Shown in pieces: positions 10,541-62,562 of a stretch of 64,000 nucleotides of DNA (position 1 is its first letter; every line of letters starts with the position of its first letter). Origin of the DNA: Zootoca vivipara (lineage: Eukaryota). Below the pieces are notes generated by a model, which was not told where the DNA came from, ran no database searches, and was given only the letters and a program-made list of their open reading frames with translations. A program made the translations under genes and the position numbers. The DNA is taken from contig NC_083277.1 of assembly GCF_963506605.1 (NCBI RefSeq), positions 6,572,001 through 6,636,000 of the forward strand, given 5' to 3'.

Positions 10541-10856
10541 TATATCCAAGTGGATTTTTAGATTCTTAGATCCTGCCTGGTCCCCAACATCTTGCCTTCT
10601 GGGGGAAATATATTGTTTCGTCCCTGTGTGAATTCTTTGATGTCAGGTAAGGTTAGTACTGTGCTTGATGCTCTGATCATCTTTGAAGAATGAATTAATG
10701 ATAAAAACAGAAGTTTATCCTTTTTTGGAAGCTCCTCCCAACTTCTGAGGACTTTTATGATTACTCCACAATATGCAATCCAAGCATTTATATGGGTTTT
10801 TCTTGCAGAAAGAAAGCTAGGAACTGCTCCTAAAGCTCCTTTAATATTCCAAGTCT

Positions 10857-11800
10857 TTATATGGGTTCTCCACTGTATGGATTTTTTGGTGGAAATAAAG
10901 GCTGGAGATCTGAAGAAAGCTCTTTGTCCGCACCGAATATCAATTTGTGAGTTCTTCGATGAACATTGCGATGGGAGCTCTGAGTGAAGCCCTTTCCACA
11001 CTCCAGGCATTTATAGGGTTTCTCTCCCGTATGAACGCGTTGATGTGTCGTGAGAGCTGACTTCTCAATGAAGCTTTTTCCGCACTCAGAGCATTTATAG
11101 TTTTTCTCTCCTGTATGAATTCTTTGATGTTTCCTAAGACAATTCTTCTGAGTGTACCTTTTCCCACATTCCGAACATACATGTGGTTTATCCCGGATGT
11201 GCATTTTTTGATGATCAACGAGATCTGCCTCCTGACTGAGGCACTTTCCACATTCCAAGCATTTATATTGTGTCTCTGCAGTGTGTGTTTTCTGGTGGTA
11301 AATTAGACTAGTACGTTGGCTGAAGTTCTTTCCACACTCTAAGCACTTATATGGCTTCTCCCCTGTGTGAATTCTGCGGTGGTAAGTGAGATGGGAGCTT
11401 TGACTGAATCTCTTTCCGCATTGCAGACATTTATACGGTTTCTCCCCGGTGTGAATTCTTTGATGGGAAGTGAGGTTTTTCTTCAAAGTGAAGCTCTTTC
11501 CACATGGTGAGCATTTATACGGTTTCTCACCAGTGTGAATTGCTCGATGGTGCATGAGAGTTATTTTGTGAGTGAAGCTTTTTGCACACTCCAAGCACTG
11601 ATAGGGTTTCTCCCCAGAATGAATTCTTTGATGGGAAGCAAGACTTGTCTTATGCCTTAAGATCTTTCCACACTCCAAACACTGATAGGGTTTCTCCCCT
11701 GTGTGAATTCTTTGATGGTACATGAGAATTATCTTCTGAGCAAAGCTCATTCCACACTCACTGCATTTATATGGTTTCTCTGCGCTGTGGATTCCTTGTG
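10857..11800 (-). CDS. ZNF gene B, terminal exon: 10 C2H2 fingers plus frameshift-derived tail
   Basis: CxxC..H..H repeats with TGEKP linkers; acceptor tgtttcag at 11801 is phase-compatible with the KRAB exon; joined CDS 414+82+83+127+944 = 1650 nt. Confidence 0.9.
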
Positions 11801-12498
11801 CTGAAACAGAGGAAATGTGGAGATGTGTGGGGTTCTTACTAGCTAATACCCTTTTATGTCGTGCCGTCCAGATGTTATTAGACTTTCCCATCAGCTCCAG
11901 CTGGAACAGACAGCTGTCAGGCATGATGAAGGTGGATTCCTGCAACCTCTGGATGGAACCACATTGGCTACCCCAGCCATAAAAAGGTGTGTGTCCCCCC
12001 CAAAAAAACATATTACACTAAGCTGCTACTGACCCTTCCTTTCACCTCATATTTGGAATTAATATAAACAAAGAGAAGGCAAAGGCCTCTCATTTTTATG
12101 GAAATCTGAGATCAGTGAACCCCAGCCTCTTTTGTGAGGTGGATTATTATTTGGCCCATTCATGAAATTCACTCAATTTCTGATGATGTGAACCCGTCTC
12201 TTTGGCCTTCTGGAAAATGACATAGCTCCACTTCCCTCGCAACTCTGAAACTTACATTCCACAAATAACTTAGCCAGATAAGACCAACCAAGCCACAGTT
12301 GTGAAGGGCAGGTCTTGAGAATGCATGGCCAGAGAAATTGCAGGAGAGATTAACTGCAATATTAACTTTCAAGATTAACAGCCGGAATAAAAATCCCAGA
12401 GGCTGCATGTGTTGTGCTATGTCAGAAATATTAAGATTGCTCACATACAGAAATATTGAATTTCAAAAACAACCTTATGACGCAACAGGGGGTCTTAC

Positions 12499-12625
12499 CG
12501 AGAGAGGCCACGATTCCCCAGTTCTCCTCCATGACTTCCTTATGCAATACCCTCTGGTCAGGATCCAGCAGCGACCACTCCTCATCCGTGAAATGCACAG
12601 CCACATCCTCAAATGATATGGGACC
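12499..12625 (-). CDS. ZNF gene B, KRAB-A exon
   Basis: 127 bp, [46 protein letters not shown] ends. Confidence 0.9.
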
Positions 12626-14900: not shown

Positions 14901-15198
14901 ACATCGCATGGAAACAGCAAATGCAAAAACCTTAGCGGTACTGGCTATCTGTTTGGCGGACTTCCACAGAAAGTTGCTGAAGAAGCAGAGAATTCTGGGA
15001 TCGCCTCCCTCACATCCTGAGCCCCTTGGGATTATTTAGCTCAGAGGTAGCTGGCACAATGCTCTCCAAAAGTTGCTGGACTTCAACTCCCATAATTCCC
15101 AGCCAAAATGTAGAATGAATAGGGTTGATGGGAGTTTTAGTTCAACAACCTCTGGAGGAAACCAGGTTGACTTTCCCTGGTCCAGACAAAACTCTCAC

Positions 15199-15612
15199 CT
15201 GCTGCTCTTCCTGCTTCTTGTCCTCTGCCCGGTTCAGGAGGAAACCTTCTGTCAGGGCCACCGCCTGGGAACTGGTCTCTGCTCCGCATTCCCTCACCCA
15301 GTTCTCCATCTCCGGGGGGAGGACAGCCAGGAACTGCTCCAGGATCACCAGGTCCAGGATCTGAGCCTTGGTGTGTGTCTCCGGCTTCAGCCACTGACGG
15401 CAAAGATGGTGGAGTCGGCTGCAAACTTCCCGTGGTCCCTTGGCCTCCTGGTACTGGAAGTGCCTAAACTGTTGGCACTGCAGATCTGAGCTGTGGGTGT
15501 TCTCCCTCAATGTCTTGTGTCTGCTTCCAACCCAAGTTTCCCCAGTGCTCCCAGTCACAATGCTATCAGGCTGTCTTCCTGCTTCGAGGGCGGCAGAGTC
15601 TTGTTCTTCCAT
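15199..15612 (-). CDS. ZNF gene B, SCAN-domain exon (first coding exon)
   Basis: ATG GAA GAA CAA start just after an acceptor, SCAN consensus, donor CAG|GTGAG. Confidence 0.92.
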
Positions 15613-22895: not shown

Positions 22896-23189
22896 AGTGG
22901 AGAGTTTTGACTAAACGTGATCCACCTGGAGCAGGAACTGGCAAGCCGCTCCAGTATCCCTGCCAAGAAAACTCCATGGACAAAGACAACAGGCCACTGT
23001 GAATTATTTGATGACAATGGAAGTTCCTGCTTCTTCAGAAGCTTCTTCCAAGCAGTGTTTTTAAAAATTCCTCCACAAAGTGTCTTGGGCACAAGCCCTG
23101 TCCATATGCATTACAAGCATTTATATGGTTTCTTATTGTGGAAAGACAGCTAGGAACTGCTCCTAAATCTCCTTTAATTTTCCAAGTCT

Positions 23190-25195
23190 TCATATGGGTT
23201 CTCCGCTGTATGGATTTTTTGGTGGGAATAAAGGCTGGAGATCTGAAGAAAGCTGCTCCCATACACTGCCCATCGATGTGTGAGTTCTCTGATGAAGATT
23301 GCGATGGGAGCTCTGAGTGAAGCCCTTTCCACACTCCAGGCATTTATAGGGTTTCTCTCCCGTATGAACACGTTGATGTGTTGTGAGAGTTGACTTCTCA
23401 GTGAAGCTTTTTCCGCACTCAGAACATTTATACTGTTTGTCTCCTGTATGAATTCTTTGGTGTCTGCTGAGACAGTTCTTCAGAGTGTAGCTTTTCCCAC
23501 ATTCCAAGCATACAAATGGTTTCTCCCGGGTGTGCATTTTTTGATGAGCAACGAGATCTGCTTCCTGACTGAGGCACTTTCCACATTCCAAGCATTTATG
23601 TTGTGTCTCTGCAGTGTGTGCTTTCTGGTGGTAAATTACACTAGTGCGGTTCCTGAAGCTCTTTCCACACTCTAAGCATTTATACGGTTTCTCCCCAGTG
23701 TGAATTCTGCGATGGTAAGTGAGATGGTGGCTCTGACTGAAGCTCTTCCCACACTGCAAGCATTTATGGGGTTTCTCCCCCGTGTGAATTCTTTTGTGGG
23801 TAGTGAGATTTATCTTCGCAGCGAAGCTTTTCCCACACTCCGAGCATTTAAAGGGTTTCTCACCAGTGTGAGTTCTTTGATGGTCAGCGAGTCTGTCCTT
23901 GCTGCTTAAGCTCTTCCCACACTGCAAGCATTTATACGGCTTCTCCCCCGTGTGAATTCTTTGATGGGTATTGAGATTCATCTTTAAAGTAAAGCTCTTT
24001 CCACATTCCAAACATTTATATGGCTTTTTGCCCGTGTGAATTGTTTGATGAGAAGAAAGGCTAGAATTGTTTATGAAGCTCTTTCCACATTTCAAGCACT
24101 GATATGGCTTCTCCCCGGTGTGAATTCTCTGATGAACAGAGAGTTGTACCTTCCGACTGAAGCTCTTTCCACACTCAAAACATTTATATGGTGTCTCCCC
24201 TGTGTGGATTCTCTGATGGCGAGTGAGAGGGGAAGACTGACTAAAGCCCTTTCCACACTCTAAGCATTTATATGGTTTCTCCCCTGTATGAATTCTTTTG
24301 TGGGAAGAAAGGGTAGAATTGTGTCTGAAGCTCTTTCCACACTCCAAGCATTTATATGGTTTCTCCCCTGTGTGAATTGTCTGATGATGAGTAAGTTTTG
24401 AACGACTAACGAAGCTCTTTCCACATTCCAAATGTTGATATGATTTCTCTCCGGGATGAATGGTTTGATGCCGAATAAGTTTTGAACTACTAATGAAGCT
24501 CTTTCCACATTCCAAGCATTTGTATTCCTCTGTGTGAATTCTCCGATGAGAAGCTAGGCTAGAATTTTCTCTGAAGCTCTTTCCACATTCCAAGCACCGA
24601 TACGGCTTCTCGCCTGTATGAATTCTTTGGTGAATAGTTAGACGTAACTTCTGAGAGAAGCTCTTTCCGCATTCCAAGCATTTATATGGTTTCCCCCCTT
24701 TGTGAATTATCTGATGAGAAGAAAGGGTAAATTTTTCTCTGAAGCCCTTTCCACATTCCAGACACTGATATGGTTTCTCCCCTGTGTGAATTCTTTGGTG
24801 ATAAACGAGTCTTTGCTTGCTACTGAAGCTCCTTCCGCATTCTAGGCATTTATATTGTTTCTCTCCTGTGTGAATTCTCTGGTGGCAAGAAAGGCTATAA
24901 CTGTCTCTGAAACCCTTTCCACACTCAGAGCATTTATATGGTTGCTCCCCTTTGTAGTTTTTGCAGTAGGATTTACACTGGTGTTTTGAACCAAGAGCTT
25001 CCCATTGAACGAGGCAGTTACCACATTGCTTTCTATCATCGGTTGCATGAAAGCCACTGTCATTTCGAAGCTTATTCCTTTTCTTTTCTGCTTCATTTTT
25101 GCTCCTTTGCTCTTCTCGCTTCCTGCATCTGTCTCGGTCCTGGGTCTCTTTTCCATGTAGTTCTTCCTTACTCTTCCTTTCCGATTCATCACATT
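23190..25195 (-). CDS. ZNF gene C, terminal exon: spacer, 20 C2H2 repeats (one with C to H) and frameshift-derived tail
   Basis: Frame is open from acceptor ttcattgcag (25196) to TGA, longer than the ORF track shows; joined CDS 417+82+80+127+2006 = 2712 nt. Confidence 0.92.
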
Positions 25196-26622
25196 CTGCA
25201 ATGAATTGAAAAACTCATCAGAGCCTAAGGAAGAAACAGACCCTTATCTCGCTTAACAGCTTCCATACTTATGATAAAGGTAAAACCGAGTGGATCTAGA
25301 GGGAAGGAAAACCTTTGTACACATTTAACTAGCTCTCCCGACTAGCGGCAGGTGTGCTACAGAGTATTGGTTTCGAACCATAGAAACCTAGGTTCAGCAT
25401 CCAGCTCAGAGATGAATCTCATTGTCTGGTCTTGGGCCAATCACTCTCTCTCAGCCCAACCCAGTTTGAGAACTATGATTCCCAACCCTACTTACTATGC
25501 ATTTTATGAACAATTAGACGTGGGTGGCGCTGTGGTCTAAACCACAGAGCCTAGGGCTTGCCAATCAGAAGGTCGGCGGTTCGAATCCCCGTGACAGGGT
25601 GAGCTCCCGTTGCTCTGTCCCAGCTCCTGCCCACCTAGGAGTTCAAAAGCACGTCAAGTGCAAGTAGATAAGTAGGTACTGCTCTGGCGGGAAGGTAAAC
25701 GGTGTTTCCGTGCTCTGCTCTGGTTCGCCAGAAGCGGCTTAGTCATGCTGGCCACATGACCTGGAAGCTGTATGCCGGCTCCCTCGGCCAGTAAAGCGAG
25801 ATGAATGCCACAACCCCAGAGTTGTCCACGACTGGACTTTACGGTCATGGGTCCCTTTACCTTTACCTAGATTTCGGCTAGGTGCAACCAATTATACTTC
25901 ACGGACCCCCATTTCTCACTAAGTGCAGCTTTGGAATGGGGTACCCTTTTTGAATATGACGCCACGCCTGAAAGAGACCCCTAGACTCTCATCCTTGATA
26001 TTGAAGATATTTGTTGCTTTGCAAGCTTGGACAATCAAAGAAGGGAGCGATGGCAGGGCTTGCACCATTTCCACCAGGGTAACGCCTGGAGAAAAGGCTT
26101 AGCTGTGTTATGCACAGCGGCTCGTCATGGATGCAGGAACAGAAGAGCCTCTATAGCTGGCACTGATGGAGTCAATTATTCTTAGAGTCCTCAGCCCCCT
26201 CTCCAAACCTGTCATCTACAATAGGTTGCTATCAGGCACAACAAAGTGTTGGGGCTGACCTTTAAAGCCCGAAATGGCCTCAGCCCAGTATACCTGAAGG
26301 AGCGTTCCCACCCCCATCGCCCACCCCAGACACTAAGGTCCGGCTCTGAGGGCCTTCTGGTGCTTCCCTCCCTGCGAGAAGTGAGGTTACAGGGAACCAG
26401 GCAGAGGGCCTTCTCGGTGTTGGCTCCCTCCCTCCCCGTGGAACACCCTTCATCAGGTTGTCAAGGAAATAAACAACTCTCTGACTTTCAGAAGACATCT
26501 GAAGGCAGCCCTGTTTAGGGAAGTTTTTAATGTTTGATGTTTTATTGTTTTTTTAATATTCTGTTGGGAGCCACCCAGAGTGGCTGGGAAGGCCTGGCCA
26601 GATGGGCAGGGTATAGATAATA

Positions 26623-27818: not shown

Positions 27819-27945
27819 CGAGAGATGCCAGGATCGCAACACTCTCCTCCATGACTTCGTTATGCAGAGCCCTCTGGTCAGGATCCAGCAAGGCCCACTC
27901 CCCTTCGGTGAACCACACAGCCACGTCCTCAAAAGATATTGGACC
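27819..27945 (-). CDS. ZNF gene C, KRAB-A exon
   Basis: 127 bp, [42 protein letters not shown]. Confidence 0.9.
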
Positions 27946-31296: not shown

Positions 31297-31786
31297 CTGA
31301 AACAGCGGTGAGGATTGGAGGACATTGAAGGGGGAGATGTATTAGAAAACAGAATGACACAGGGGAAAACCTGAGCAGTACTTGGAATATTTTCCAGAGA
31401 ACGTTGGTGAATGAAAATAGAGGCTTTTTTGGGGTGCCCTCCCTCCCTTTCTTTTTTTGGAAATAATTTTCATTTGGTTTTACAAATATAAAATCATAAC
31501 AATACAAAATACATATCCATATTTAGAGATTCCTCCGAATCTCTGGACTTCCCACCTTCCCCTCTATAGGCCCTGATGTCAACCTTTTCAACTGCATACT
31601 GTATTAGTAATCCATATTTTAAGTCACTCCATTTTGTCCGTAACATTGCCCTCCATCTCTTTCAGAGGCTGTTGGGACTATCTGGACCAGGAGTAGCCAA
31701 TATTCCCCCTCAACGTTGCTCAGGGGCGAGGAGAGATTTAGTTCAAAAACACCTGAAGGCATCACAAGATCTTGAGATGCTCTCAC

Positions 31787-32203
31787 CTGCTGCTCTTCCT
31801 GCTTCTGGTCCTCTGCCTGACTCAGGAGGAAACCTTCTGCCAGGGCCACCGCCTGGGAACTGGTCTCTGCTCTGCATTCCCTCACCCAGTTCTCTGTCTC
31901 TGGGGGCAGGACAGCCAGGAACTGCTCCAGGACCACCAGGTCCAGGATCTGAGCCTTGGTGTGTCGCTCCGGCTTCAGCCACTGACGGCAAAGGCGGTGG
32001 AGTCGGCTGCAAACCTCTCTGGGTCCTTCGGCCTCCTGGTAGCAGAAATGCCTGAATCTCTGGCGCTGTGCATCTGAGCTGAGGGCGTCCTCTTTACCCA
32101 GGATCCCCTGTGCGTTTCTTTCCCAGAATCCCTCACTGCTCTCGCTTTTGATGGGATCGGTGCCTCTTCCTGTTTCAGCAGCACCCGTCTCTTGCTCTTC
32201 CAT
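31787..32203 (-). CDS. ZNF gene C, SCAN-domain exon
   Basis: MEEQE start, [53 protein letters not shown] motif, donor CAG|GTGAG. Confidence 0.92.
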
Positions 32204-35776: not shown

Positions 35777-36130
35777 TCCTGCTTGGTAGGGGGTTGGACT
35801 GGATGGCCCTTGTGGTCTCTTCCAACTCTATGATTCTATGACTGGAAAGAGAAGTTGCTGAATTGCAACTTATCACCAAGCTCAAAACCATGGAGGGACC
35901 TGGTTTGAACAGAGATATCGGGTTCTTATCTCATTATACATGATAAGCGATCTTCAGCCATCTCAACCCTTGCTTTTTCATGCAAAACCATTTGCAGTCG
36001 TTTGCGGTCATCAACAGCTATCAGTCAGTCAATCACCCATTTCCACCACCCTTCTGAGTGATCCCCCCTCCCCATCCCCACCCCTCCCCACCCCTTCTCT
36101 ACATAAGTGCCTGGAAACTTCCATTTCACT

Positions 36131-36168
36131 GTATCTGAAGAAGTGTGCATGCACACGAAAGCTCATAC
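36131..36168 (+). ncRNA. Minimal type I hammerhead ribozyme motif in 5' pseudo-LTR
   Basis: gtat-CTGAAGA-a-gtgtgc.at.gcacac-GAAA-gc-TC-atac: core boxes, stems I and II, vestigial palindromic stem III (AGCT). Confidence 0.85.
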
Positions 36169-36267
36169 CAAAATAAAAACTTAGTTGGTCTTTAAGGTGC
36201 TACTGAAGGAATTTTTTTATTTTACTTCGATCCAGACCAACACGGCTACCTACCTGTAACCAGAACT

Positions 36268-38973
36268 ATGGAAGGCACCACATTGAGCCGCATGAAATGG
36301 AAGTCCATCAACCTCACCAAGAAACTTGCCCAGGTACAAACTGACATCCTCTTTCTATCTAAATGCAAAAACCTGGACATTGTACCTAAGGGTCTTAGAA
36401 TTAAGAACCCTCTTCAATCAACTTATCCCACAGAATATGCCAGAAAACTATGCCACACTTTATCTAAGAAACTGCTGAAACATCTTATCGGCGTTCTGTA
36501 TTCCAAACAGAAGTTAATAAAGGAGGAACTCTCTGCACTGGAGAACTCCATCAGGAATCACCCGGCCTGGCAGAAGTTCCACAAGGAAAAACAAACCATT
36601 TACCACTCTCAACTGGAGTTACTGAAGAACCAGAAAAATAAAAAACTCTGCAACCTTTCCAACCTACAGGCCACCAATCAAAACAAGATCAACAACATTG
36701 TCAATCTTTCACAGCAAACACTCAGCCCAGCTGAGGAATCCGTCCTTTCACGGGGACTATCATTCTGCCCTGCCAAATCCCAACACATGATTCAGTTCTG
36801 CGGGGACCTGGAAGCATTTTTCCGCCGTTTACGCCTGAAGGAGTATTTTCATCACACACAAGAACAAGACAAAGTAGAACAAACTACATCCCCACAACAC
36901 AACACCTCTCAACTTACTGGGGAACAACCATCACCCTCCAAACGCATCAATGAACAGAACATTGACCACCAACTACCACCGAAAAGAAGTTACACAAAAA
37001 GGGACTCCACATGGACCCCTCCTGATGGACGCAATACCACACTAGATCTGTACATCGAATGCTTCCGCCACAGAATCCAAACGGATGTGACCAGAAAACA
37101 CCATCGCTTACAACAAAATCTAAACCATGCTGAAAGGAGAGCCATAGAAAATCTCAGGAACAACCCAGACATTATAATTAAAGAGGCAGACAAGGGTGGA
37201 GCTGTCGTCATCATGAACAAAACTGATTACATCCAAGAGGCCCACAGACAACTTTCCAATACTGCCTTTTACATGAAATTGGACTCAGACCCCACACAAA
37301 CATACAAAAAAGAACTGAACAAGATTATTAAGGAGCTACCCCTACACATCCAAGAACAGATCCTCACAAACACACCAGCGGAACCTCGGCCAGGAACTTT
37401 CTATCTTCTACCCAAAATACACAAACCAGGAAACCCAGGACGCCCCATCATCTCAGGTATTGGCACCATTACAGTGGGTGTTTCCGGCTATATGGACTCT
37501 GTTCTGAAACCATATGCTATCAGTGCTCCCAGCTACGTACGTGACACCACAGATTTTCTGAGGAAAATACAATATTTGAACAATCTTCCTAACAATACTA
37601 TACTAGCCACTATGGATGTGGAATCTCTATATACCAACATCCCACACAATGATGGTTTACAAGCCATAAGGAACACCATTTCAGATAAAACCACAGCGGA
37701 CTTTGCTACCAAACTCTGCCACTTTGTCCTTACCCACAACCACTTCAAATTTGGTGATGACCTGTTCCTCCAGATCAGCGGCACAGCCATGGGCACCCGC
37801 ATGGCCCCACAGTATGCCAACATCTTCATGGCAGATTTAGAACAACGTTTCCTTAACTCCTACCCACTCAAACCTCTCCTGTACCTGCGATACATTGACG
37901 ATATTTTTATTATCTGGACACATGGACAACAGACCCTGGAAACCTTCCACCAGACATTCAATGACTTTCACCCCACCATCAACCTAACAATGAACCAATC
38001 TATGCAAGAAATACATTTTTTGGACACTACTATAAAAATACAGGATGGACGTATAGACACCACCTTATACAGAAAACCAACTGACCGACAAACATATCTA
38101 CATGCTTCTAGCTACCATCCCAAACATACCAAACAATCCATCGTATACAGCCAGGCCTTACGTTACAACCGCATCTGTTCCAACTCTACAGACAGAGAAT
38201 CTCACCTAAGAGATCTACAGCAAACCTTTTTAGAACTAAAATATCCACCTGATGAAGTTAAACAACAGATCAACAGAGCCAGACAGATACCTAGAGAGAA
38301 CCTGCTGCAAGACAGACCCAAAAAAGAAAATAACAGAACACCACTAGTCATCACATACAGCTCCCAAGCTAAAACAGTACAACGCATCATCAGAGATCTA
38401 CAGCCTCTCCTGGACAATGACCGCTCCCTTTCTCAAGCTCTGGGAGGAAGACCTTTCATTGCCTACAGACAGCCACCCAATCTTAAACAACTCCTCACCC
38501 ACAATAATACAACCACCAGACTTAACATGGACACTGGTACCAGAGCCTGCAATAAACCCAGATGCCAACTTTGCTGCCACATACACCCAGACAACACCAT
38601 TACTGGCCCCAACAACATCCAACATACCATCTCAGGACTATTTAATTGCTCATCCTCTAACATTGTGTATGCCATCAAATGCCAACAGTGCCCTTCAGCT
38701 CTCTATATTGGACAAACAGGCCAAACCCTACGCCAAAGGATAAATGGACATAAATCTGACATCAGGAACCAGAAGACAGAAAAACCAGTAGGAGAACACT
38801 TCAATCTCCCAGGACATTCTATACAAGATCTCAAAGTAGCTGTCTTACTACAAAAGAATTTCAGAAATAGACTGGAAAGAGAAGTTGCTGAATTGCAACT
38901 TATCACCAAGCTCAAAACCATGGAGGGACCTGGTTTGAACAGAGATATCGGGTTCTTATCTCATTATACATGA
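36268..38973 (+). CDS. Penelope-like element ORF: reverse transcriptase + Cys-rich linker + GIY-YIG endonuclease (901 aa)
   Basis: ADKGGAVV, LPKIHK, MDVESLYTNIP, GTAMG, RYIDD; CNKPRCQLC linker; IVYAIKC...LYIGQTG..LRQRINGH endonuclease. Confidence 0.96.
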   Translation: MEGTTLSRMKWKSINLTKKLAQVQTDILFLSKCKNLDIVPKGLRIKNPLQSTYPTEYARKLCHTLSKKLLKHLIGVLYSKQKLIKEELSALENSIRNHPAWQKFHKEKQTIYHSQLELLKNQKNKKLCNLSNLQATNQNKINNIVNLSQQTLSPAEESVLSRGLSFCPAKSQHMIQFCGDLEAFFRRLRLKEYFHHTQEQDKVEQTTSPQHNTSQLTGEQPSPSKRINEQNIDHQLPPKRSYTKRDSTWTPPDGRNTTLDLYIECFRHRIQTDVTRKHHRLQQNLNHAERRAIENLRNNPDIIIKEADKGGAVVIMNKTDYIQEAHRQLSNTAFYMKLDSDPTQTYKKELNKIIKELPLHIQEQILTNTPAEPRPGTFYLLPKIHKPGNPGRPIISGIGTITVGVSGYMDSVLKPYAISAPSYVRDTTDFLRKIQYLNNLPNNTILATMDVESLYTNIPHNDGLQAIRNTISDKTTADFATKLCHFVLTHNHFKFGDDLFLQISGTAMGTRMAPQYANIFMADLEQRFLNSYPLKPLLYLRYIDDIFIIWTHGQQTLETFHQTFNDFHPTINLTMNQSMQEIHFLDTTIKIQDGRIDTTLYRKPTDRQTYLHASSYHPKHTKQSIVYSQALRYNRICSNSTDRESHLRDLQQTFLELKYPPDEVKQQINRARQIPRENLLQDRPKKENNRTPLVITYSSQAKTVQRIIRDLQPLLDNDRSLSQALGGRPFIAYRQPPNLKQLLTHNNTTTRLNMDTGTRACNKPRCQLCCHIHPDNTITGPNNIQHTISGLFNCSSSNIVYAIKCQQCPSALYIGQTGQTLRQRINGHKSDIRNQKTEKPVGEHFNLPGHSIQDLKVAVLLQKNFRNRLEREVAELQLITKLKTMEGPGLNRDIGFLSHYT

Positions 38974-39160
38974 TAAGCGATCTTCAGCCATCTCAACCCT
39001 TGCTTTTTCATGCAAAACCATTTGCAGTCGTTTGCGGTCATCAACAGCTATCAGTCAGTCAATCACCCATTTCCACCACCCTTCTGAGTGATCCCCCCTC
39101 CCCATCCCCACCCCTCCCCACCCCTTCTCTACATAAGTGCCTGGAAACTTCCATTTCACT

Positions 39161-39198
39161 GTATCTGAAGAAGTGTGCATGCACACGAAAGCTCATAC
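39161..39198 (+). ncRNA. Minimal type I hammerhead ribozyme motif in 3' pseudo-LTR
   Basis: Identical to 36131-36168. Confidence 0.85.
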
Positions 39199-41079
39199 CA
39201 AAATAAAAACTTAGTTGGTCTTTAAGGTGCTACTGAAGGAATTTTTTTATTATGATTCTATGATTCCTCCTTTCCGTCCCGCCCCGCTCGTGAGAACGCG
39301 GACGGGAACGAGGTGCTTTATCTCCCCCCCCCCCAGGGGCCCGCCTCTACTCTAACTCCAACTCCTCCTCCCTCTGCATGCATCCGGTTCACTTTAACCC
39401 TTACAGCACCAAACTGTGAAGGGGACCTCCCTCCCTCCTTCTCCCTCTGCACCCCCCCCCGCCCCCGAAAGCAAAAGAGCCAAGGAGGCAATGAATCATG
39501 GAATTGCAGAGCCAGAAGGGACCCCCCAAGGGCATCCAATCCAACCCCCTGCAATTATCTTTAATAATAATAATAATAATAAATTTTATTTATACCCCGC
39601 ACTCCCCAGCCAAAACCGGGCTCAGGGCGGCTAACACTAGATATATAAAACAATTGATTAAGATAGAACTTAAAAACAAGATTAAATACAACATTAAAAT
39701 TAAAATGCAGCCTCATACGAAAAGGGAAAGGGAAAGTGGGGGAGGGGATCAAGTCGGTTCCAGGCCAAAGGCCAGGCAGAACAACTCTGTCTTACAGGCC
39801 CTGCGGAAAGAAATCAGGTCTCACAGGGCCCTGGTCTCATGAGACAGAACGTTCCACCAGGTCGGAGCCAGTGTTGAAAAGGCCCTGGCTCTGGTTGAAG
39901 CTAATCTGACTGCCTTCGGGCCCGGTACCTCTAGGGTGTTGCTATTTATGGACCTTAAGGTCCTCCGTGGGAAATACTAGGAGAGGTGGTCCCGTAAGTA
40001 CGAGGGTCCTAGGGTCTTTTGCCCTAGAATGTGCTATTCTAGGCTGCATCCCCAGAAGTAAGAGCTGACAGTAAGAGCTGTTCAGCAGTGGAATTTGCTA
40101 CCAAGGAGTGTGGTGGAGTCTCCTTCTTTGGAGGTCTTTAAGCAGAGGCTTGACATATGTCAAGAATGCTTTGATGGTGTTTCCTGCTTGGCAGGGGGTT
40201 GGACTGGATGGCCCTTGTGGTCTCTTCCAACTCTATAATTCTATGATTCTAAATACAGTGCCCAGATCAAGGGAAGTCATAGTAACACTCTGTTCTGCCT
40301 TGGTGTGGTGTCCAGTTCTGGGTGCCAAGAGTTTTAAGGATAGAATCACAGAAACTTAAAGTTGGAAGGGACTCCCAAGGGACATCTAGTCCAACCCCTT
40401 GCGATGGAGGAATAACAGCTAAAGCATCCATGAGAGATTGCCACCAAAGCTCCAGGAGGAAACAGGTATTGCACAGAGATGGTGCTCTTCTGAGGCATCA
40501 GACTCCTTGCCTCTTTGTGGGAGAGCCCTGCAAAAATAGTTGGAGGAAGCTGGCAGAGAAGACTCCAAGCTGTTTTAGCACTTTTGTGAATCTTCAGTCC
40601 CCCACCCAGAAATCCCATCATCTCACAGCTCACCAGGACCCATCATTCATGTAACACATGACTCAGCAGAGTTTGATTTCAAATTGTTTTAACATTAACA
40701 TCTTGAAACGTGCCAGCCCAGCCTCTATAGCAGACGAATGTCTTTGAAAGTGGCTTTTTGGCAATAAAGTCCATTGAACGAATTCCATTTTTAACGTTTT
40801 TCTGTGTTGTGAAAATTTTAAAAAAATTAATATTTTCTGGTATTAGCCTGATGCCCATTGTTTGAAAGATGGTTGCATTTTAGGGACTTTCTTCAAGGAA
40901 AAGAAAATATTTTCCTGCTCTTTCGCCCTTTGATGCAATAGGTCGAAGATGCTCTGAATCAGACCGCTGGATCAATGTAGCCTGGCCTCAGTTATCTGTG
41001 CACAGGTGACTGCCTGTATAGACTCACCTGAGCTCTGCAGCTCTCTCCTGATTGAAGTGCAGAGAGAGTGAGGACCAGG

Positions 41080-41990: not shown

Positions 41991-44308
41991 TCCCAATATC
42001 AACCATCTTGGACCTGAAGAGCAACAGGTGGGCACATTAGTGCCACTAGGGAGGGCCACCCACTCGGTGTTGACTGGGCCTTTTCAGTGGCAGCCCCTCT
42101 TCTGTGGAATGTCCTCCCTAAAGCGCCAAATGATTTGCATCAAAGCCATCTCACCTCGCCACTAGATCTCAGTCTGAGCAACTGGAAGTCCTATGAACAG
42201 GAAGGGGAAGAGGGGGGTGAACTTTAACAATTCCTTCTGCTCCCCTTGATCTCCAGCTCCACGAACAGAGACACCGAGCCCTGCAATGCCCAAAATCCAA
42301 AATCCAATAGTAACCACATGTGTGGGCAATCGCGTAAGAAACACAGGAGAGGGACACTGATTTTGAAGCAGGAATATGATCAGAAACAAAAACCCTGCAA
42401 AAATGTGGAAGAGAATTAAGTTTCTAAAATTGATTTTTATTAAAGTTTTCACAATACAATGAAATAATACCTAGAACAAACAGAATCGGAAATATAAGAG
42501 AGGAAAGAGGGAAAGAAAAAAAAGAGGGAGGGAGGAGAACAAAGCTATAAGAAACACCAAAGATAAAGGGGAAAAACATCTGCTTCTCCGTCTACATTAG
42601 AAAAGGATTATTTAAGACATTTTTAAAATGTTTAAGAGCATTAAGATTTTTGGGGACAGTGCTGTGTTTCGGATATACGGTTTTATTTACATATATACGC
42701 AGCCTAAGCATAAGGTGGAGAGGCCTCCCGGGTCCCAGCATTCACATTCCCACAGATTTTGCTCCCGCATTTGATCTTTGGGGAGATGCTGGGGTATTCT
42801 CAGTGCAGCCGCACACTGACCTGTCCAAACTCCACCAGGAAAAATAAGACAAGACTGTCCCCTGTCCACAAGTTGGCCTCTTGAGGCGGGAGATTCAGTT
42901 CACAAACCTTTCGATTATATACAGTTTCCTTATTCTATTTCTATATCTACTATCAGCATCTAAAACCACCAGAGCCTTTTTTCCACAGAATTGCATTCTA
43001 GATTGCTAGATATTCTTCTTTTAAACTAAGAGGGTATGTAGCTAGGGCAGTTTGGTAAGCTTTAATGAGAGGCCCCATGAAGTCAGTCAATTTTAATTTT
43101 CCATTTAACAGCTGCTTCACCAGGTTATCTTAATACAGTTTATTTCAGTCTTCGCTTTCCCATTTTATTCATCGTGTTTTATTTTACCCACCGTTTCTTT
43201 TATCTTTCCCTCTCCCAAGATTCATTTATATATAGTTTGCAGTTGTTTAGCCTGGAGAAGAGAAGGTTAAGGGGTGATATGATAGCCATGTTCAAATATA
43301 TAAAAGGATGTCATATAGAGGAGGGAGAAAGGTTGTTTTCTGCTGCTCCAGAGAAGTGGACACAGACCAATGGATTCAAACTACAAGAAAGAAGATTCCA
43401 CCTAAACATTAGGAAGAACTTCCTGACAGTAAGAGCTGTTTGGCAGTGGAATTTGCTACCAAGGAGTGTGGTGAAGTCTCCTTCTTTGGAGGTCTTTAAG
43501 CAGAGGCTTGACAGCCATATGTCAAGAATGCTTCGATGGTGTTTCCTGCTCGGCAGGGGGTTGGACTGGATGGCCCTTGTGGTCTCTTCCAACTCTATGA
43601 TTCTATGATTCCCTTTCTATACTTCCATGGTTTATAAACAGATTACACCCATTGTTCTTCTGCTGCATGTATAAATAAAACATTCTAGGTGGAATTTTTT
43701 TTTTAGCTTCTTGGATCCCATTTGGTCACCGACATCTTGCAAATCAAAGTCCTCGTTTTCACACGCGTTTATATCAGGGGTAGGCAACCTAAGGCCTGTG
43801 GGCCAGATGCGGCCCAATCACCTCGGGAATCAGCGTGTTTTTACATGAGTAGAATGTGTCCTTGTATTTAAAATGCATCTCTGGGTTGTTTGTGGGGCAT
43901 AGGAATTTGTTCATTTTCTTCTTCAAAATATAGTCCGGCCCACCACGTGGTCTGAGGGATGGTGGACCGACCCACGGCTGAAAAAGGTTGCTGGTTTATG
44001 GTTTATATGGTTTCTCCCCTGTGAGAACTCTTTAATCCCAGGTAAGGCTGAAACTTTCTGAAGCTCTTTCAACCTTCAAAGCATTGACAGTTATTCTCAT
44101 AGCTCTATGAATTTTCTGGTGGCGGAGGGGGAGTTGGGAAGGTGAATGTGGTGGAAGGATTTCAACTTTTCTGGCATTTATATGGATCCTACCCTCTGAG
44201 AATTCTTACCAGCTTTCCCCAGCTTTAATGTAATCTCAACCCCCCAACTGTGTGTCCTTTAATTACTGAAGTTTCTGCTTCTTGGTAAGGTCTCTGCAAC
44301 TATTTCTA

Positions 44309-45637
<1,329 letters not shown>

Positions 45638-45849
45638 CTGCAATGAAAAGAGAAACTGATAAGAGCCTGAGGAAGAAATAGAGCAGGCACCCCCAAACTG
45701 CGGCCCTCCAGATGTTTTGGCCTACAACTCCCATGATCCCTAGCTAACAGGACCAGTAGTCGGGGAAGATGGGAATAGTAGTCCAAAACATGTGAAGTTT
45801 GGGGATGCCTGAAATAGAGCCTCAAATCACTGAGGTAAAAGCAAGGATG

Positions 45850-47687: not shown

Positions 47688-47802
47688 CCTGAGAGGCCTC
47701 AATCCCATAGATCTCTTCCATGACTCCCCGATTCAGAGATCTCTGGTCAGGTTCCAGCAAAGCAGATACTCCTCTTCTGTGAAATGCACAGGACCCGGCA
47801 CA
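47688..47802 (-). pseudogene. ZNF gene D, disrupted KRAB-A exon; last 34 nt (ATG 47721) are in frame with the ZnF exon
   Basis: SFEDVAV block deleted and frameshift after HFTEEE; downstream LLEPDQRSLNRGVMEEIYGIEASQ and GTAAG donor retained. Confidence 0.8.
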
Positions 47803-56400: not shown

Positions 56401-56884
56401 TCATGTGGCCAGCATTACTAAGCCACTTCTGGCGAACCAGAGCAGCACACAGAAACGCTGTTTACCTTCCCACTGGAGCAGTACCTATTTATCTACTTGC
56501 ACTTTAACATGCTTTCAAACTGCTAGGTGGGCAGGTTTTATATAAATGTGCAATTAAGGAGTTTTCTTCGTGGAATCAAGTCCTGTCCATTTAGGGCAGC
56601 AGCAGATGTTCTCCAATTCAAAAAGGCCAAGGAAGCCTATGAATGAAAATGTGTTACAGTATGAACACCACAACTTACGGTACTAGGAAGGTGTGTGTTT
56701 GTGTGTAATCAAAAGCATGGGAAGCAATCCAGAAGCATTCACTGCTACTTGAGAAAACATTCAGCAAATGCAAACACCTGGGGACATATTTCTTTTAAAA
56801 AAGACCACGTGGTCACTGAGTTTATGAGTCATTTCGTGGAAGGGGAAACTCCCAGTAGCTGAAAATTGAGAAAACGCGGGAGTC

Positions 56885-57352
56885 ATGGCTGCTGCTGGGG
56901 GTCGCATCCAGCGTCTCCATGATGAAGCCACGTGCTCCATCTGCCTGGATTACTTCAAGGATCCAGTCATCATCCCAGAGTGTGGGCACAACTTCTGCCA
57001 GTCCTGCCTGATCCAGTACTGGGAGGAATCGGAGGCAGAGGCTTCCTGCCCTCAATGCAGACAAAGAGTCCAGAGAAGGGGTCTCATCCCCAATCGGCAA
57101 CTGGCTAACATGGTAGAAATAGCTCAGAATCTCAGTCTTCAAAAGGGGAGAGAAGGAGGAGGAGGCAAAGGGAGAATGTGCGAAGAGGGAAAGGGAGAAG
57201 GAGGGAAAGGAGGAGTCTGCGAGAAACACCGGGAGCCCCTGAAACTCTTTTGCAAAGTCCACGAAGCCCCCATCTGTGTGGTTTGTGACAAATCAAAGGA
57301 ACATGCAAATCACAAGGTGATTCCTCTGGAGGAGGCTTTCGAGGAATACAAG
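56885..57352 (+). CDS. TRIM E3 ligase (TRIM27/39-like), exon 1: RING + B-box2
   Basis: EATCSICLDYFKDPVIIPECGHNFCQSC...CPQCR RING; CEKHREPLKLFC...ICVVC..SKEHANH B-box; donor AAG|GTAAG. Confidence 0.93.
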
Positions 57353-58969
57353 GTAAGGAGATCCATGGATCTTGAGGAGGGAGAAATAGCTGTGGATTCT
57401 TCCTGAGAGGTTTTATTTTAAATTCTCAGGTCCAAAGTAGGCATGGCATTAATTGGTGGTTCTTTATTACATTAGAAATCTTTCTCTCTGCCAGGGGGAC
57501 AAGGGGATCTTGAAATACAGCAGCTTCAAAGATTTGAATTTGGACCTTGGCAGGGAGAGAAAGGGTTAACCCCACTTTCCCCAGCCAGGCTGCTTTGTAC
57601 GCATTTAGAACTCTGCAAATGTAAATTGCACATACTGTACACAACTAAGTACATGTCTCCTTTGGCTACCAGGATGCCTCCTTAATGCCCTGCAAATGAG
57701 GGATCAGCTGTGGGGGGGAGGGGACTGTTAGCCAGGAATTGACCAGAAGGTGTAGGATCCCCCCCCAAAGTATCTGGTGGAAGCAGATTTGGGAGTGGGG
57801 GTGGAAGCACCTACTGGTGGGGAGCACACTTATTCTGGGGTGTGTGTGTGCTGTGGGGCCTGTGCAATGAGGTTTCAGTGGGGAGGGGGGACTGAGGATC
57901 TCCTTCCAACCCAAATGGCAAAGGACTCAGTGGCTCAGGGTAGCATCTGCAAAGACTAGGGGAAAGATGATTTCCCTTAACAACACAGAATTGGACATGT
58001 ACTATTATATATACTGTATATACCGGTATATATGGGCGCAGGTGGCACTGTGGGTTAAACCACTGAGCCTAGGGCTTGCCAATCAGAAGGTTGGCAGTTC
58101 GAATCCCTGCGAAGGGGTGAGTTCCTGTTGCTCAGTCCCAGCTCCTGCCCACCTAGCAGTTCGAAAGCACATCAAAGTGCAAGTAGATAAATAGGTACCG
58201 CTACAGCGGGAAGGTAAACGGCATTTCCATGTGCTTCTCTGGTTCGCCAGAAGTGGCTTTGTCATGCTGGCCACATGACCTGGAAGCTGTACGCGGGCTC
58301 CCTCGGCCAATAATGCAAGATGAACGCGCAACCCCAGAGTCGGTCACGACTGGACCTAATGGTCAGGGGTCCCTTTACCTTGGAGAAGACAAAGGAGCAA
58401 GCCTTTGCTCGTCTCCAGACTAGTTAGTTGGACTAGAAAACTTTTTCATCACAGTTCCGCAGTGGTTTTCAACCAGTGTGCTGTGAATGGTGCCTCCGGG
58501 GCTGGCCAGGGGGTGTTGGCTGCCAGGAACTGAGGCAGCCTCGAAGTAAGCAAGCAAACTGGTGAGGGACTCTTGCTGTTGGGGATGGACAGACAAGCCC
58601 CAGGCCCCTGTGGGGCAGCGGGGGGGGGGGAGGAACCTCTCTTTGGGGCAGCTCAGAGACCAAGAGGAGGACTCCTAAGGAGAGGGGGGAGGAGAGGAGG
58701 CTGAGAGAGCACTCCGCAAGGGAGGGTGTTTGAGAAAGGGTGAGGGGCTGCCAGCTCTGCAAGTGACCTAACTGGGACCCTGAGCCCCACAGGGGTGCCG
58801 CAGAAACAGGGAGCTGTGGACCCTAAAAGGTTGAAAACCGCTGTACTTTTATTTCCTACAGTAAAATTACTTTGCTATTATAGCAAGGCCACTGGACCCA
58901 AGAAGCCAGTATAATATTCATCTCCACTCTCTGTGTCTGTCAAACCTGAGTTTTCCCTTTTCTCTTTAG

Positions 58970-59065
58970 GGAGAGATCCGTCGCCGCCTGGAGATTCTGA
59001 GGAAAGAGAGAGAGGAAATTATGGCCTTTCAAGCAGATCTGGACAAGGAAAGCAAAGACCTCCTT
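58970..59065 (+). CDS. TRIM exon 2 (coiled coil)
   Basis: 96 bp, AG/GT, GEIRRRLEILRKEREEIMAFQADLDKESKDLL; size typical of this TRIM class. Confidence 0.88.
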
Positions 59066-59930
59066 GTAAGGGTCTCTATTGGTACTAGACAGGGAACAAA
59101 CACTTGAGACCTCCTGGTATAGGGCAGTATATAATTTCAATAAATAATTATAAGAAGAAGAAGAATCGAGTCAGGACTGAGGAGGGATGGGAAAATCTGC
59201 CCATTTCAGCTTCTCCCCATTTCTCCTTTTTCCATATCATTCTGTTTATCAATTTATTATTATGAAAATGAATCACATGTTAGGGTAGCTACCTCCTTGT
59301 ATAAATATTTTGATCTGTACTGTACCCTCATATAAATACATTTTTGTGTGAATATTACCTGGCTGGGTCAAACTTGAAAATACCAGAGGTGTGAATTTCA
59401 AAGCTGTATTTTGGTCTCCATATTTTTTCAGCAATAGTGAATTAGGTAAGTTCACCTTTGAATGCAGCTAAATTGAGTTTCTTTCCCATTGTCGTATATT
59501 ATGTAAATAGCAGTCAAGGAGAAGCCTGAGGACTTGTGAGCTGAAAAGGTGGAAGCAATTCAATCCAAATCCGGATTTACCAGAAAAATTACTAAAGAAT
59601 TGTCTTTCTAAATGTGCACTCTTGTTCATTTTTAGGAAACTCTGGCCATTTTGAACCTTTAAATAAAATAGGGGAGCTATGGGGATGAACCCTGCACTTT
59701 GTCCTCCTCCTCTTCCCCTGTTTCTGTTGCCTTCCTACACCTAAATGGCCCCAGTCTAAACTGAGGGGTCTTTTATGTTCCTGGATGTTCTCTGAACAAC
59801 TTAGAACTCAGGTTATGCCATGCTCCAAAACATGCAGGAAACTCCCGTTTCTAGAAAAAAAAAAGCTCCTTCCACACTCAGACCTCCTCTTTTCTTGCAG
59901 GTAGGTAGCCGTGTTGGTCTTTTCTTGCAG

Positions 59931-60161
59931 AAACTAACAGAAATTGAGAGGCTGAAGGCTGTGGAGAAGTTCAGACAACCGCGCCAGTTCCTGGAAGAAC
60001 AAGAAAAACATCTGCTGACTCATGTGGAAGAGGTGGAGAAGGAGATTGCAGGGAGAAGGGATGAGCAGCTGGCTAAACTCTCCAGGAATCTCTCCTCTCT
60101 TGAAAGGATCATCCAGGAGATGGAGGAAAAGGGTCAGCAGCCAGCGAGTGAACTCCTGCAG
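59931..60161 (+). CDS. TRIM exon 3 (coiled coil); alternative in-frame acceptor at 59901
   Basis: 231 bp, KLTEIERLKAVEKF...EMEEKGQQPASELLQ, donor CAG|GTAAG. Confidence 0.9.
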
Positions 60162-61133
60162 GTAAGACGGTGGCAGGAACAGCACAAGGCTCCAGGAAAA
60201 GGCTGCCTCCAATCCTTTCTGTGCCCCTTTCATGTATGCAAGGAGTGCAGGGGCTCAGTTGATAGAGCCTCTAGTAAGGTTTGTAATGGACAGGAAGACC
60301 CAAGAGACCTAGGATGCTTAACTCATCTGAATGCAGACGAGAGATTCTTCTGTGTCCTTGATGGAACGGGAGGTGATTTTCTGCTCTTTGCTGATGATTT
60401 GTCTCTGAATGCCTTCCCACTGGGCAATGCTGCCTTCCTGCCCTCTGCTGGGCTTCGCCAAAGATGCATTCTGGTCTCCTTCCAACATGAGCCAGTCTCT
60501 TGACCAAGCTTCTCTTCCCGTTCCCTCCACGACTTCTGGGTTGATCCCCTTCCCCGTGGACACAGATCAGCCCAAAATGGTGCTCAGTCATAGTGACCAA
60601 AGAGCAAGACAGAGGGACTCATCCAGACTGATATTTGCTTTGATGTTGCAATAAGGAGCAAGTTTTTCCTGAGGGAAAGTGGCAGGACAAAGGCAAAACC
60701 ACTTGGACCCGTGTTTTCTGGGCAATGGAAAAGCAGAAGTGTGGTTGAGCGCAAAGAAACACTGAGCTGTTTTATTACCCCTTTGGAGGCATTTTATGCT
60801 GCATGTCCTTTTTTTCATTTCCAGTTGGAAAGTAGAATTTAAAATTTGGGGACTTCTGTGGAAGACAATTTGGGACAGTGCCCTGGCAGGATTATGCTGT
60901 AGGCTTACTTACATCTCAATTGCACAATGCAAACGGGGGTAAAGTTAATAAATTATAATATAAGAGATGGGGTGGAATCTTTTCTTGAACCCACAAACAT
61001 GAAGTTTCCCTAAAATGCTGGTGGATTTTCATAAGGATTTTTTTTTTAAAAAAATTGCAAACAGATGTGGAAATGTGGAGAACTTGATACAGTATTGGAA
61101 AAGTTAATAATTCCCTTCTCTTTTCTCCTCTAG

Positions 61134-61156
61134 GATGTGAGAAGCACCTTGCAGAG
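61134..61156 (+). CDS. TRIM exon 4
   Basis: 23-bp exon DVRSTLQ(R) with polypyrimidine acceptor and GTAAGT donor. Confidence 0.85.
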
Positions 61157-62054
61157 GTAAGTGGATTTGGCTCATTTCCATTAGCATCCCTCCATGAGGC
61201 CAGAATGCAAGAACCTCAAACATGGCCCTCAAACAGGGGCGAGACTGTAGGATAGGACCCCCTCTTTGGAACTTGTAGCACCCCAATTCCCCCCAATGAA
61301 TTGGCGCTATTTCCTTTGTGAGGTTTGGGTTTACTTTTGTAATGTGTATGATTTGTTTTGTATTGGCCTGAATGAACCATTAGATTTGGATGTGCACCTG
61401 TGGAAGATCTGTCTCAACTTCTGCAAACATCTGATTCTGGAGCAGAGGTTATCTAATGTATTAAAGCAAGAGATCCCCAAGCTCCAGAAACCAATATTTT
61501 GAGTTTACTCAAGTGTCGCTAAGAGAAGGCTGTTTTACTGGCACACAACAAGCCAAAGCTGCTTTCCTAGGAAAAATTATTGCCTGAGTTGTTTCCTTCT
61601 AGACTGACCAGTTCAGTCACTCTTACAGCAAACACTCTGCTGGCCACCTCACCCTGTCCCAAGGAAACACCTGCCCCATAGAGCCCCTTGGGAGGGGGCA
61701 ATTTCTCACGAAGGAGCGGGAATTGGCTATTTTCCTGACCATATTCTGGCTGCAGTATTTAAATTTAAGGTGTCACTCAGGTTCAGAGTACAGGTTTTAA
61801 GGAACATTTCACATGCCATATGATTCTGCTTCTTCTTTGAATTGACATCAGTGGGGATACTCAGAGGCCTGGGGTTGCTGTTTTGGCCCCTGGGGGTCTG
61901 GCTGAGGAGTCCGTAGTGAGGAAAAAACTCCCCACTCAGTGCCTGCCTGTCCCTCTAGGCTTTCCACGGCCGGCTTCCTCCTCTCAATTCCTTTCTTTAC
62001 CTTAGCCAGAAATTGTGGATTTGAATGGGCTGACATTGTTTTTCTTTTCAGCAG

Positions 62055-62170
62055 GTATGAGAAAAGAGCGAGTCCAGAGAAGCCAGTGGCTTTTCCTGCA
62101 GAACTGAGGAACCAGTTGGAATCCTGCGTTCTAAATCACCTTGTGGAGGATGCAATGAAACAATGGAAAG
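62055..62170 (+). CDS. TRIM exon 5 (PRY-SPRY exon expected beyond the window)
   Basis: 116 bp, YEKRASPEKPVAFPAELRNQL...AMKQWK, CAGCAG acceptor, GTAATG donor. Confidence 0.82.
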
Positions 62171-62562
62171 GTAATGAAAAATGGTTGCCAGGATTTCACA
62201 CTGGGAATTCTATTATTCCTTCAGAACTGAACACGCCTGGCTTTTATTGTGTGGAACTGAGTAACCCCAGGATACCTTCCTTCTTGGTGCTCCAGCCTTC
62301 ATTTCCTGTCCCCCAGAATGGCCCATGTATATTGTGATGCTGAAGCTTGTAAAGAAAGCCTGAACCAGAGTGTAGAGCAAAGTCGGGATTTTTTCCTCCC
62401 CTGTGCATCTGTTTACAATTCTACGGAACCTCCTTTTCCTTTCGGTTCCCCATCTACACAATCTGGGTTTGTCCTTTTGGAGGTTCTCCTGCTCTGAATG
62501 GAGTCAAAGGGCATTAAGAAGCCCCCAGTTCCCCCTCTGCCTCCAGCTCAGGCTTGTTTCTC

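Follow-up and report, generated by a model that had tools for sequence, protein, structure and literature searches.

Zinc-finger genes that end in a frameshift are usually taken to be decaying. The closest described system is the euAP3 motif of the APETALA3 MADS-box proteins, a frameshift-derived C-terminal motif (Kramer et al. 2006, PMC1513400). According to the available part of that paper, the new motif took the place of a conserved short one and became fixed across the core eudicots, as established by deep sampling; the same part does not settle if animals, too, have frameshift motifs linked to duplication. The available text of PMC2194788 cites subsequent surveys of sequences derived by frameshift, so the principle itself is not new. 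That text also reports that long 3′ zinc-finger exons are enriched in frame disruptions (36 of 67 long disrupted human exons).

The tail described here, which ends the three zinc-finger genes B, C and D, resembles euAP3 in being a small-indel alternative frame of formerly coding DNA and in its codon pattern. It differs from euAP3 in that a DNA-binding finger and its successors were given up and in that the frameshift preceded the duplications seen, and it is supported by three paralogues and three partial contigs as against the deep euAP3 sampling. As with the disrupted finger exons of PMC2194788, similar off-frame tails recur in this genome. That source, as far as its available text goes, treats disruptions as disruption or family turnover, whereas here a control family is neutral and the B/C/D tail is apparently selected. 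We regard the tail as genuine, lineage-limited and frameshift-born; the evidence of selection on its last 20 residues is suggestive but thin, and its function is putative.

Three zinc-finger paralogues and their common tail

The window, i.e. the whole 64,000-nt stretch that was analysed, holds a cluster of minus-strand C2H2 zinc-finger genes in which B, C and D are neighbouring paralogues. Their open reading frames (ORFs) lie at 10857-12017 (B), 23190-25214 (C) and 44388-45743 (D), and all features of the three genes given below are on the minus strand. The last coding exon of C (23190..25195) encodes 19 C2H2 fingers and probably begins at a phase-1 acceptor at 25196. That of B (10857..11800) encodes 10 fingers behind a candidate in-phase acceptor at 11801, and that of D (44388..45637) encodes 11 fingers behind a probable phase-1 acceptor at 45638. 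In B and C, SCAN and KRAB exons with Pfam scores above cut-off stand in phase with the finger exon, the phase-1 donors and acceptors being read from sequence alone. The SCAN exons are located at 31781..32203 in C (PF02023, E 5e-40) and 15193..15612 in B (PF02023, E 2e-38), and the KRAB exons at 27819..27945 in C (PF01352, E 2e-17, splice sites visible in the sequence) and 12499..12625 in B (PF01352, E 5e-20). The exon order of both genes, SCAN, KRAB, then linker and finger array, is that of SCAN-KRAB-C2H2 genes of the ZKSCAN type.

Gene D departs from this type and falls outside the SCAN-KRAB-C2H2 class, as no SCAN match was found upstream of it and its KRAB is a partial (profile positions 17-39 of 42), frame-broken remnant at 47688..47802, in which the ATG at 47721, in phase with the finger exon and well placed by its Kozak context, is the probable start. 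The product of D may act as a competitor or an activator that has no KRAB. Decay has turned the first two fingers of D into an acidic stretch (45380-45637), which is followed by the 11 intact fingers, and the fingers of D are still constrained (omega ~0.17 against C). In B the finger exon (11800-12050) has no linker or acceptor of the usual kind; an AG in pyrimidine-rich context at 11801, a putative acceptor, would restore the frame just ahead of finger 1. Elsewhere in the window, an exon for RING and B-box with coiled-coil-like exons behind it (56870-62337, plus strand) marks a TRIM-type gene placed head to head with D. A 925-codon open frame (36196-38973, minus strand), reverse-transcriptase-like with a GIY-YIG-type end, is presumably a Penelope-like retroelement, and a duplicated stretch (~35862-36176 and 38892-39206) flanks it.

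B, C and D all exit the finger frame past the last His, which is followed by Thr or Lys, and end LSS(D/Q)LQPLFPP(K/Q)NPYSGEPI*, as a sequence-only reading of the window had stated and as the ORFs confirm. No such tail was found at the end of gene A or of the remaining genes on the left side of the cluster. The tail spans 23190..23279 in C (29 aa and TGA), where its core, the last 20 codons, occupies 23193-23252. In B it spans 10857..10946 (29 aa and TAA), with a core protein identical to that of C and the first 9 codons rewritten (KLIFGADKE). The tail of D (44388..44477, 29 aa and TAA) is nearest to the old finger. In the old frame D reads as the decayed finger that the earlier reading had quoted, lacking the first zinc-binding His. 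Seven nucleotides separate the last His codon of D from the old-frame Cys codon, as read in the sequence, versus 21 in a normal linker, a net loss of 14 nt. The 29-residue tail is an alternative frame of the next finger, whose old frame is still recognisable, and its origin is therefore of the euAP3 type. The frameshift is present in three copies and the old frame has decayed: past the frameshift it is open for ~50 codons in D and stops 5 codons on in B and C. Decayed finger DNA also continues past the stop of C (23095..23189), where it is 3′ UTR and provides an internal neutral control; its counterparts lie at ~10770-10856 in B and ~44300-44387 in D. An ATTAAA hexamer stands 12 nt past the stop in C (23173-23178) and B (10840-10845) and is absent in D. 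It is not the only 3′ end, because contigs continue past it.

Only the last 20 residues are common to all three genes. Over the last 21 codons B and C differ solely by TTT/TTC, AGT/AGC and TAA/TGA; none of the three alters the new-frame peptide, and each is a replacement in the old frame (F/S, V/A and K/E; old-frame dS 0). From the last His to the stop, C and D have 4 replaced and 8 silent codons, the stop being counted among the latter. These counts, too, agree with the earlier reading. In the first 9 tail codons, 14 of 27 nt differ between B and C (~12 replacement and 2 silent changes). The rewriting in B makes "the last 21 codons" a post-hoc window. Within the same 9 codons C changed F-G to G-S after the B/C split, and the branch between D and B/C carries 4 silent changes and 0-1 replacement. 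The 8-9 replacement changes of B in this segment (10920-10946), with no silent one, are too many for the age of B; a compensated -2/+2 indel pair is possible there and would preserve the downstream frame.

Distribution and transcription of the tail

DNA and protein searches of the genome returned only three strong tail matches, namely B, C and D. The remaining 108 protein matches in the genome, none stronger than E 0.003, come mostly from other finger clusters and are presumed to be off-frame fingers. A 635-nt contig of the same organism (X5), presumed to be RNA, spans 22965-23599 with one difference, in the UTR. In a stranded RNA run (X22, of which ~6% was read), 5-7 reads cross the C tail outside the zone common to other finger genes, all in the orientation expected of minus-strand RNA, and at this low depth no splice joint was seen across the tail. 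In another run (X21) a single read was of D type. None of the holders listed in a search of sequencing runs is recorded as RNA, and X20 does not reach the tail; neither counts as evidence. Contigs of two related organisms, ~4-5% apart from the window and presumed to be RNA, have the tail as well. From organism B come a D-like contig and a C-like contig of 259 nt, the latter with 11 differences and no gap; the C-like contig of organism C has 206 nt, 10 differences, no gap and TAA for TGA. In the C-like contigs, 2 of 93 positions differ round the tail in each organism versus 9 of 166 and 8 of 113 outside it (pooled p 0.07).

The last 40 residues of C, searched against proteins, gave no candidate. 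A profile of the three tails run against 1.84 billion representatives gave 5 matches, of which the 4 examined were unrelated repeat proteins; the top match, P0123, contains 51 short stretches that fit profile positions 6-16. The linker of C found one distant match, P0128, a "ZKSCAN7-like" model of Rhineura floridana (45% identity), which differs from C in lacking the tail and the last-finger signature and whose gene model looks chimeric. Among the best 120 of 7195 matches to the finger region, all were generic and none had the tail. Contigs ~95% identical to the window exist, yet no orthologous protein was returned, and the protein blanks therefore say nothing on range. Pfam has no family for the tail, and ESM Atlas returned hypothetical clusters and C2H2 families, as expected of an off-frame finger. 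No unshifted outgroup copy was present among 40 scored of 845 candidates. In the open full-text literature, which leaves subscription journals largely outside, neither this tail nor any out-of-frame finger tail under selection turned up. Conserved non-finger C-terminal tails also occur in rodent ZFP28 homologues (P0050, P0054, P0063) and in a group of frog ZNFs (P0008, P0021, P0066).

Substitutions in the core and in other off-frame tails

Changes in the last 20 codons were placed over B, C, D and the D-like contig of organism B. The neutral silent share was ~0.32, given kappa 3.6 and a CpG factor of x7.2 measured on 7 local SINE copies, and p values were taken from the nearest computed row (kappa 4, CpG x8). 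Seven of the 10 placed changes are silent and 3 are replacements (p 0.014). With the paralogues alone the count is 6 of 9 (p 0.03), D/Q taking two of the replacement steps and K/Q the third. The tenth change, CAA to CAG in the D-like contig, leaves the new-frame residue as it is and alters the old-frame one. Eight of the 10 changes fall at codon position 3, two at position 1 and none at position 2. The resulting new-frame omega, from 3 replacement and 7 silent changes, is 0.20 (95% CI 0.03-0.87), and old-frame omega is 4.2-5.5. Four cross-species differences were left unplaced, two in the C-like contig of organism B and one each in the others. Counting all four as replacements would raise p to 0.12; one of them is probably a UTR site (23179), to judge from clipped contig ends. 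By hand parsimony, the deep branch between D and the B/C node has 8 silent changes of 11-12 over 29 codons (p 0.005-0.012), and the whole tail over all lineages has 13 of 29 (p 0.09).

Between C and D, 7 of 60 nt differ before the stop versus 27 of 56 after it (p 2e-5, in a gapless comparison of a UTR that has indels), and no sliding 60-nt window over the last seven fingers is as alike as the tail (minimum 8, mean 14.7). Replacement sites of the core differ at 3 of 45, and dN is 0.069 in the tail versus 0.18 in the last four fingers, a difference with p 0.11. Fourfold sites differ at 2 of 10 in the core versus 13 of 25 in the last fingers. For all silent sites the figures are 4 of 15 in the core versus 40 of 71 in the fingers (p 0.048), the B-D comparison giving 6 of 15 (p 0.27). 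Since silent sites of the core are low between C and D, the external calibration may overstate local age, and a local age lowered by conversion is possible. In neutral simulations, at most 2 changed residues were seen in 0.13% of runs at distance 0.3.

A survey of 69 ORFs with at least 4 fingers, drawn from the window and from 64 loci picked from search matches rather than at random, provided a comparison. Seventeen of the 69 end in another tail of 10 residues, off-frame from the linker (e.g. TNVGKTIVQL); these ORFs lie among L040-L075 (G000:C4, ~96.6-101.5 Mb). Four further ORFs run into long off-frame finger sequence. In the 16 of 17 that were tested (L072, which ends in another frame, was left out), mean pairwise pN/pS is 0.98, with pairs not independent, and variation is even over codon positions (6/7/8). 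Relatives with the same DNA end it in different frames. The 30 nt past the stop are no more variable than the 10-residue tail (mean p 0.10), and the DNA of this tail is possibly a shared 3′ UTR block. Finger genes of a second group, on three contigs (L082-L084, L096 and L098), have in common an A-rich tail of 19-33 residues of the KQPL/KQPI/KQHL type, with varying stop positions. Because the 10-residue family behaves neutrally, shared off-frame tails are evidently common here and can be neutral; the core of the B/C/D tail behaves differently.

This bears directly on whether the B/C/D tail is a neutral leftover, alike through gene conversion between neighbours or by chance, with a codon pattern that is a small-sample, post-hoc effect. 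The low silent divergence of the core would fit, as would the position of the genes as tandem paralogues 12-34 kb apart, the abundance of off-frame tails in the survey, and the simulations at a local distance of 0.15, where at most 2 changed residues were seen in 4.8% of runs. Conversion, however, resets silent and replacement sites alike and cannot give 8 of 10 changes at third positions with none at second positions. All 3 CpG changes took the silent route, and no indel or stop is found over 87 nt in six sequences, though the UTR just behind has indels. At all 3 fourfold sites of the 9 spacer codons, moreover, C is unlike D, so these codons are not freshly converted. We consider a neutral leftover unlikely.

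The silent-site likeness could also be explained if the nucleotides were constrained, as a binding site or an RNA structure, or if recoding or splicing kept the old finger frame in use. Silent sites are indeed somewhat under-diverged, and the old frame of D is open far past the frameshift. The RNAalifold consensus, by contrast, is weak (-12.3 kcal/mol, an unfavourable covariation term of +3, and two-sided change in 1 of 32 pairs). Continued use of the old frame is opposed by its omega, by its early stops in B and C, by the missing zinc-binding His in D and by the lack of a splice joint in the shallow RNA reads. Such constraint is very improbable.

The sequence-only reading had proposed that selection maintains the new-frame motif. 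The contrast between new-frame omega, an old-frame omega of 4-5 and the 0.98 of the control family supports this for the core only. With CpG sites masked, 4 of 7 changes are silent (omega 0.26, CI 0.04-1.54, p 0.08), a result that neither refutes selection nor reaches significance, and like the whole-tail count it is compatible with a neutral leftover. Purifying selection on the last 20 residues of the new-frame peptide is likely, though not proven.

Candidate roles of the core

To separate what is particular to the tail from what the frame gives by default, 836 real fingers (sampled), including 70 of the local cluster, were read in the frame of the tail. This default frame yields on average ~8 of the 20 core residues. 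It gives a stop at the position of the tail stop in 51% of the 70 local fingers and in 9% of the 836; the stop is thus a common default, the shared stop is weak evidence, and its conservation was dropped as a sign of selection. The LIR-like WEQL was likewise dropped, as WxxL is found in 81% of fingers by default. PDZ class III ligands have the C-terminal consensus [DE]-x-hydrophobic, and the end E-P-I fits it. The fit holds little information, since 91% of default off-frame linkers have E-x-hydrophobic in this position, and E-x-I was dropped as a signal. What is rare is the proline content: five prolines in the last 20 residues are matched by 2 of 836 default fingers, and PxxPPxxP, present in the tails of B, C and D, also by 2 of 836. 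Ser in place of the usual Arg at -5 and Pro at -2 are unusual against the default as well. Several of the prolines come from changes silent in the old frame and may therefore predate the frameshift, an argument that parallels one made for euAP3 in the available part of PMC1513400.

The earlier suggestion of a degron is not supported by three known C-degron rules. FEM1B requires Pro as the last residue, and degradation is mostly lost once a single residue is added; the requirement is Glu at -2 for DCAF12 and Arg at -3 to -5 for TRPC4AP (available parts of PMC10567573 and PMC11053023). Like FEM1B degrons, the tail is a short terminal peptide, and in C and D it has an aromatic residue ~21 residues ahead of a proline. 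Unlike the degrons of these papers, it has its Pro at -2 instead of -1 and its Trp at -23 (absent in B) rather than near -21/-22, its Glu is at -3, and it has no Arg anywhere. The near-FEM1B spacing of Trp and Pro in C and D could still suit an active C-terminal degron that keeps the factors short-lived, particularly as most stability-setting C-termini follow no consensus according to the available text of PMC12976096. Gene B, however, lost the Trp and retained the core, and we judge a degron the least probable of the explanations considered.

The opposite role is that of a stabilising cap, selected only for harmlessness: the tail, polar and without Arg or Cys, would have replaced a broken terminal finger liable to expose a quality-control degron, and changes that create degrons would be purged. 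Broken C2H2 fingers expose a buried degron (PMC13742170), and aberrant C-termini become less stable with Arg, Cys, Trp and hydrophobic clusters (PMC12976096), as stated in the available parts of both papers. The composition of the tail agrees with this. Among the 34 default off-frame tails that stop here, 27 have Arg at the TRPC4AP positions -3 to -5, and only 4 lack both Arg and Cys, as the B/C/D tail does; the rewriting in B dropped Trp and gained Asp. Set against this is the number of replacements. If about half of them were harmless, 8-21 events would be predicted at distance 0.3-0.8, and 3 were seen. A composition-only filter similarly gives 8-13 events at neutral distance 0.3-0.5 (p 0.047-0.001); on the internal count alone it is not rejected (p 0.05-0.21), and that count is compatible with a cap. 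A cap thus predicts more replacements than were seen unless local age is small. In addition, the 10-residue tails, which would be expected to pass through the same filter, evolve neutrally. We find a mere cap somewhat doubtful, though it is the main rival of the explanation that we prefer.

Our preferred explanation, to which we give a probability of a little over one in three, is that the selected 20-residue end is a putative disordered, proline-rich docking motif for a partner protein. It fits because of the residue-level constraint together with the rare PxxPPxxP. SH3, WW and EVH1 are classes of polyproline-binding domain, and their ligand consensus is a PxxP core in a disordered stretch. 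AlphaFold gave no confident fold for the tail (pLDDT <50 at residues 115-134; weak evidence, from a three-row alignment), as expected for a linear motif. The basic residue flanking the PxxP core is lost in gene D, and none of the named motifs fits the tail in full.

It is proposed that a net 14-nt deletion occurred in the ancestral last exon, before the duplication that separated D from B/C, and that the frameshift common to the three genes turned a former finger into the 29-residue tail. Transcripts with a frameshift in the last exon escape nonsense-mediated decay, and the transcript of the new tail would have done so. Selection, which probably acts on the peptide, would then have kept QPLFPP(K/Q)NPYSGEPI, with its tandem PxxPPxxP, as a feature read by a polyproline-binding domain. 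The first 9 residues would be a spacer that B could rewrite freely. The broader proposal, that an alternative frame of the finger array gave a ready-made effector motif and that a lizard KZFP lineage swapped its last fingers for a putative KRAB-independent docking peptide, is tentative, and we do not hold it to be probable.

The tail may be seen as a small animal parallel to the euAP3-type flower-gene case. A probably selected case and a neutral sister case in one genome would illustrate the one-step birth of short motifs, and the setting is the largest transcription-factor family of tetrapods. The system is small and testable, with a 20-residue peptide, three natural variants and a known default sequence for comparison. 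If the docking motif is real, the tail would have been kept both in the SCAN-KRAB genes B and C and in the KRAB-less D, which would have few other effector modules to rely on. New motifs, and not just new DNA specificities, would then arise repeatedly from tandem finger arrays.
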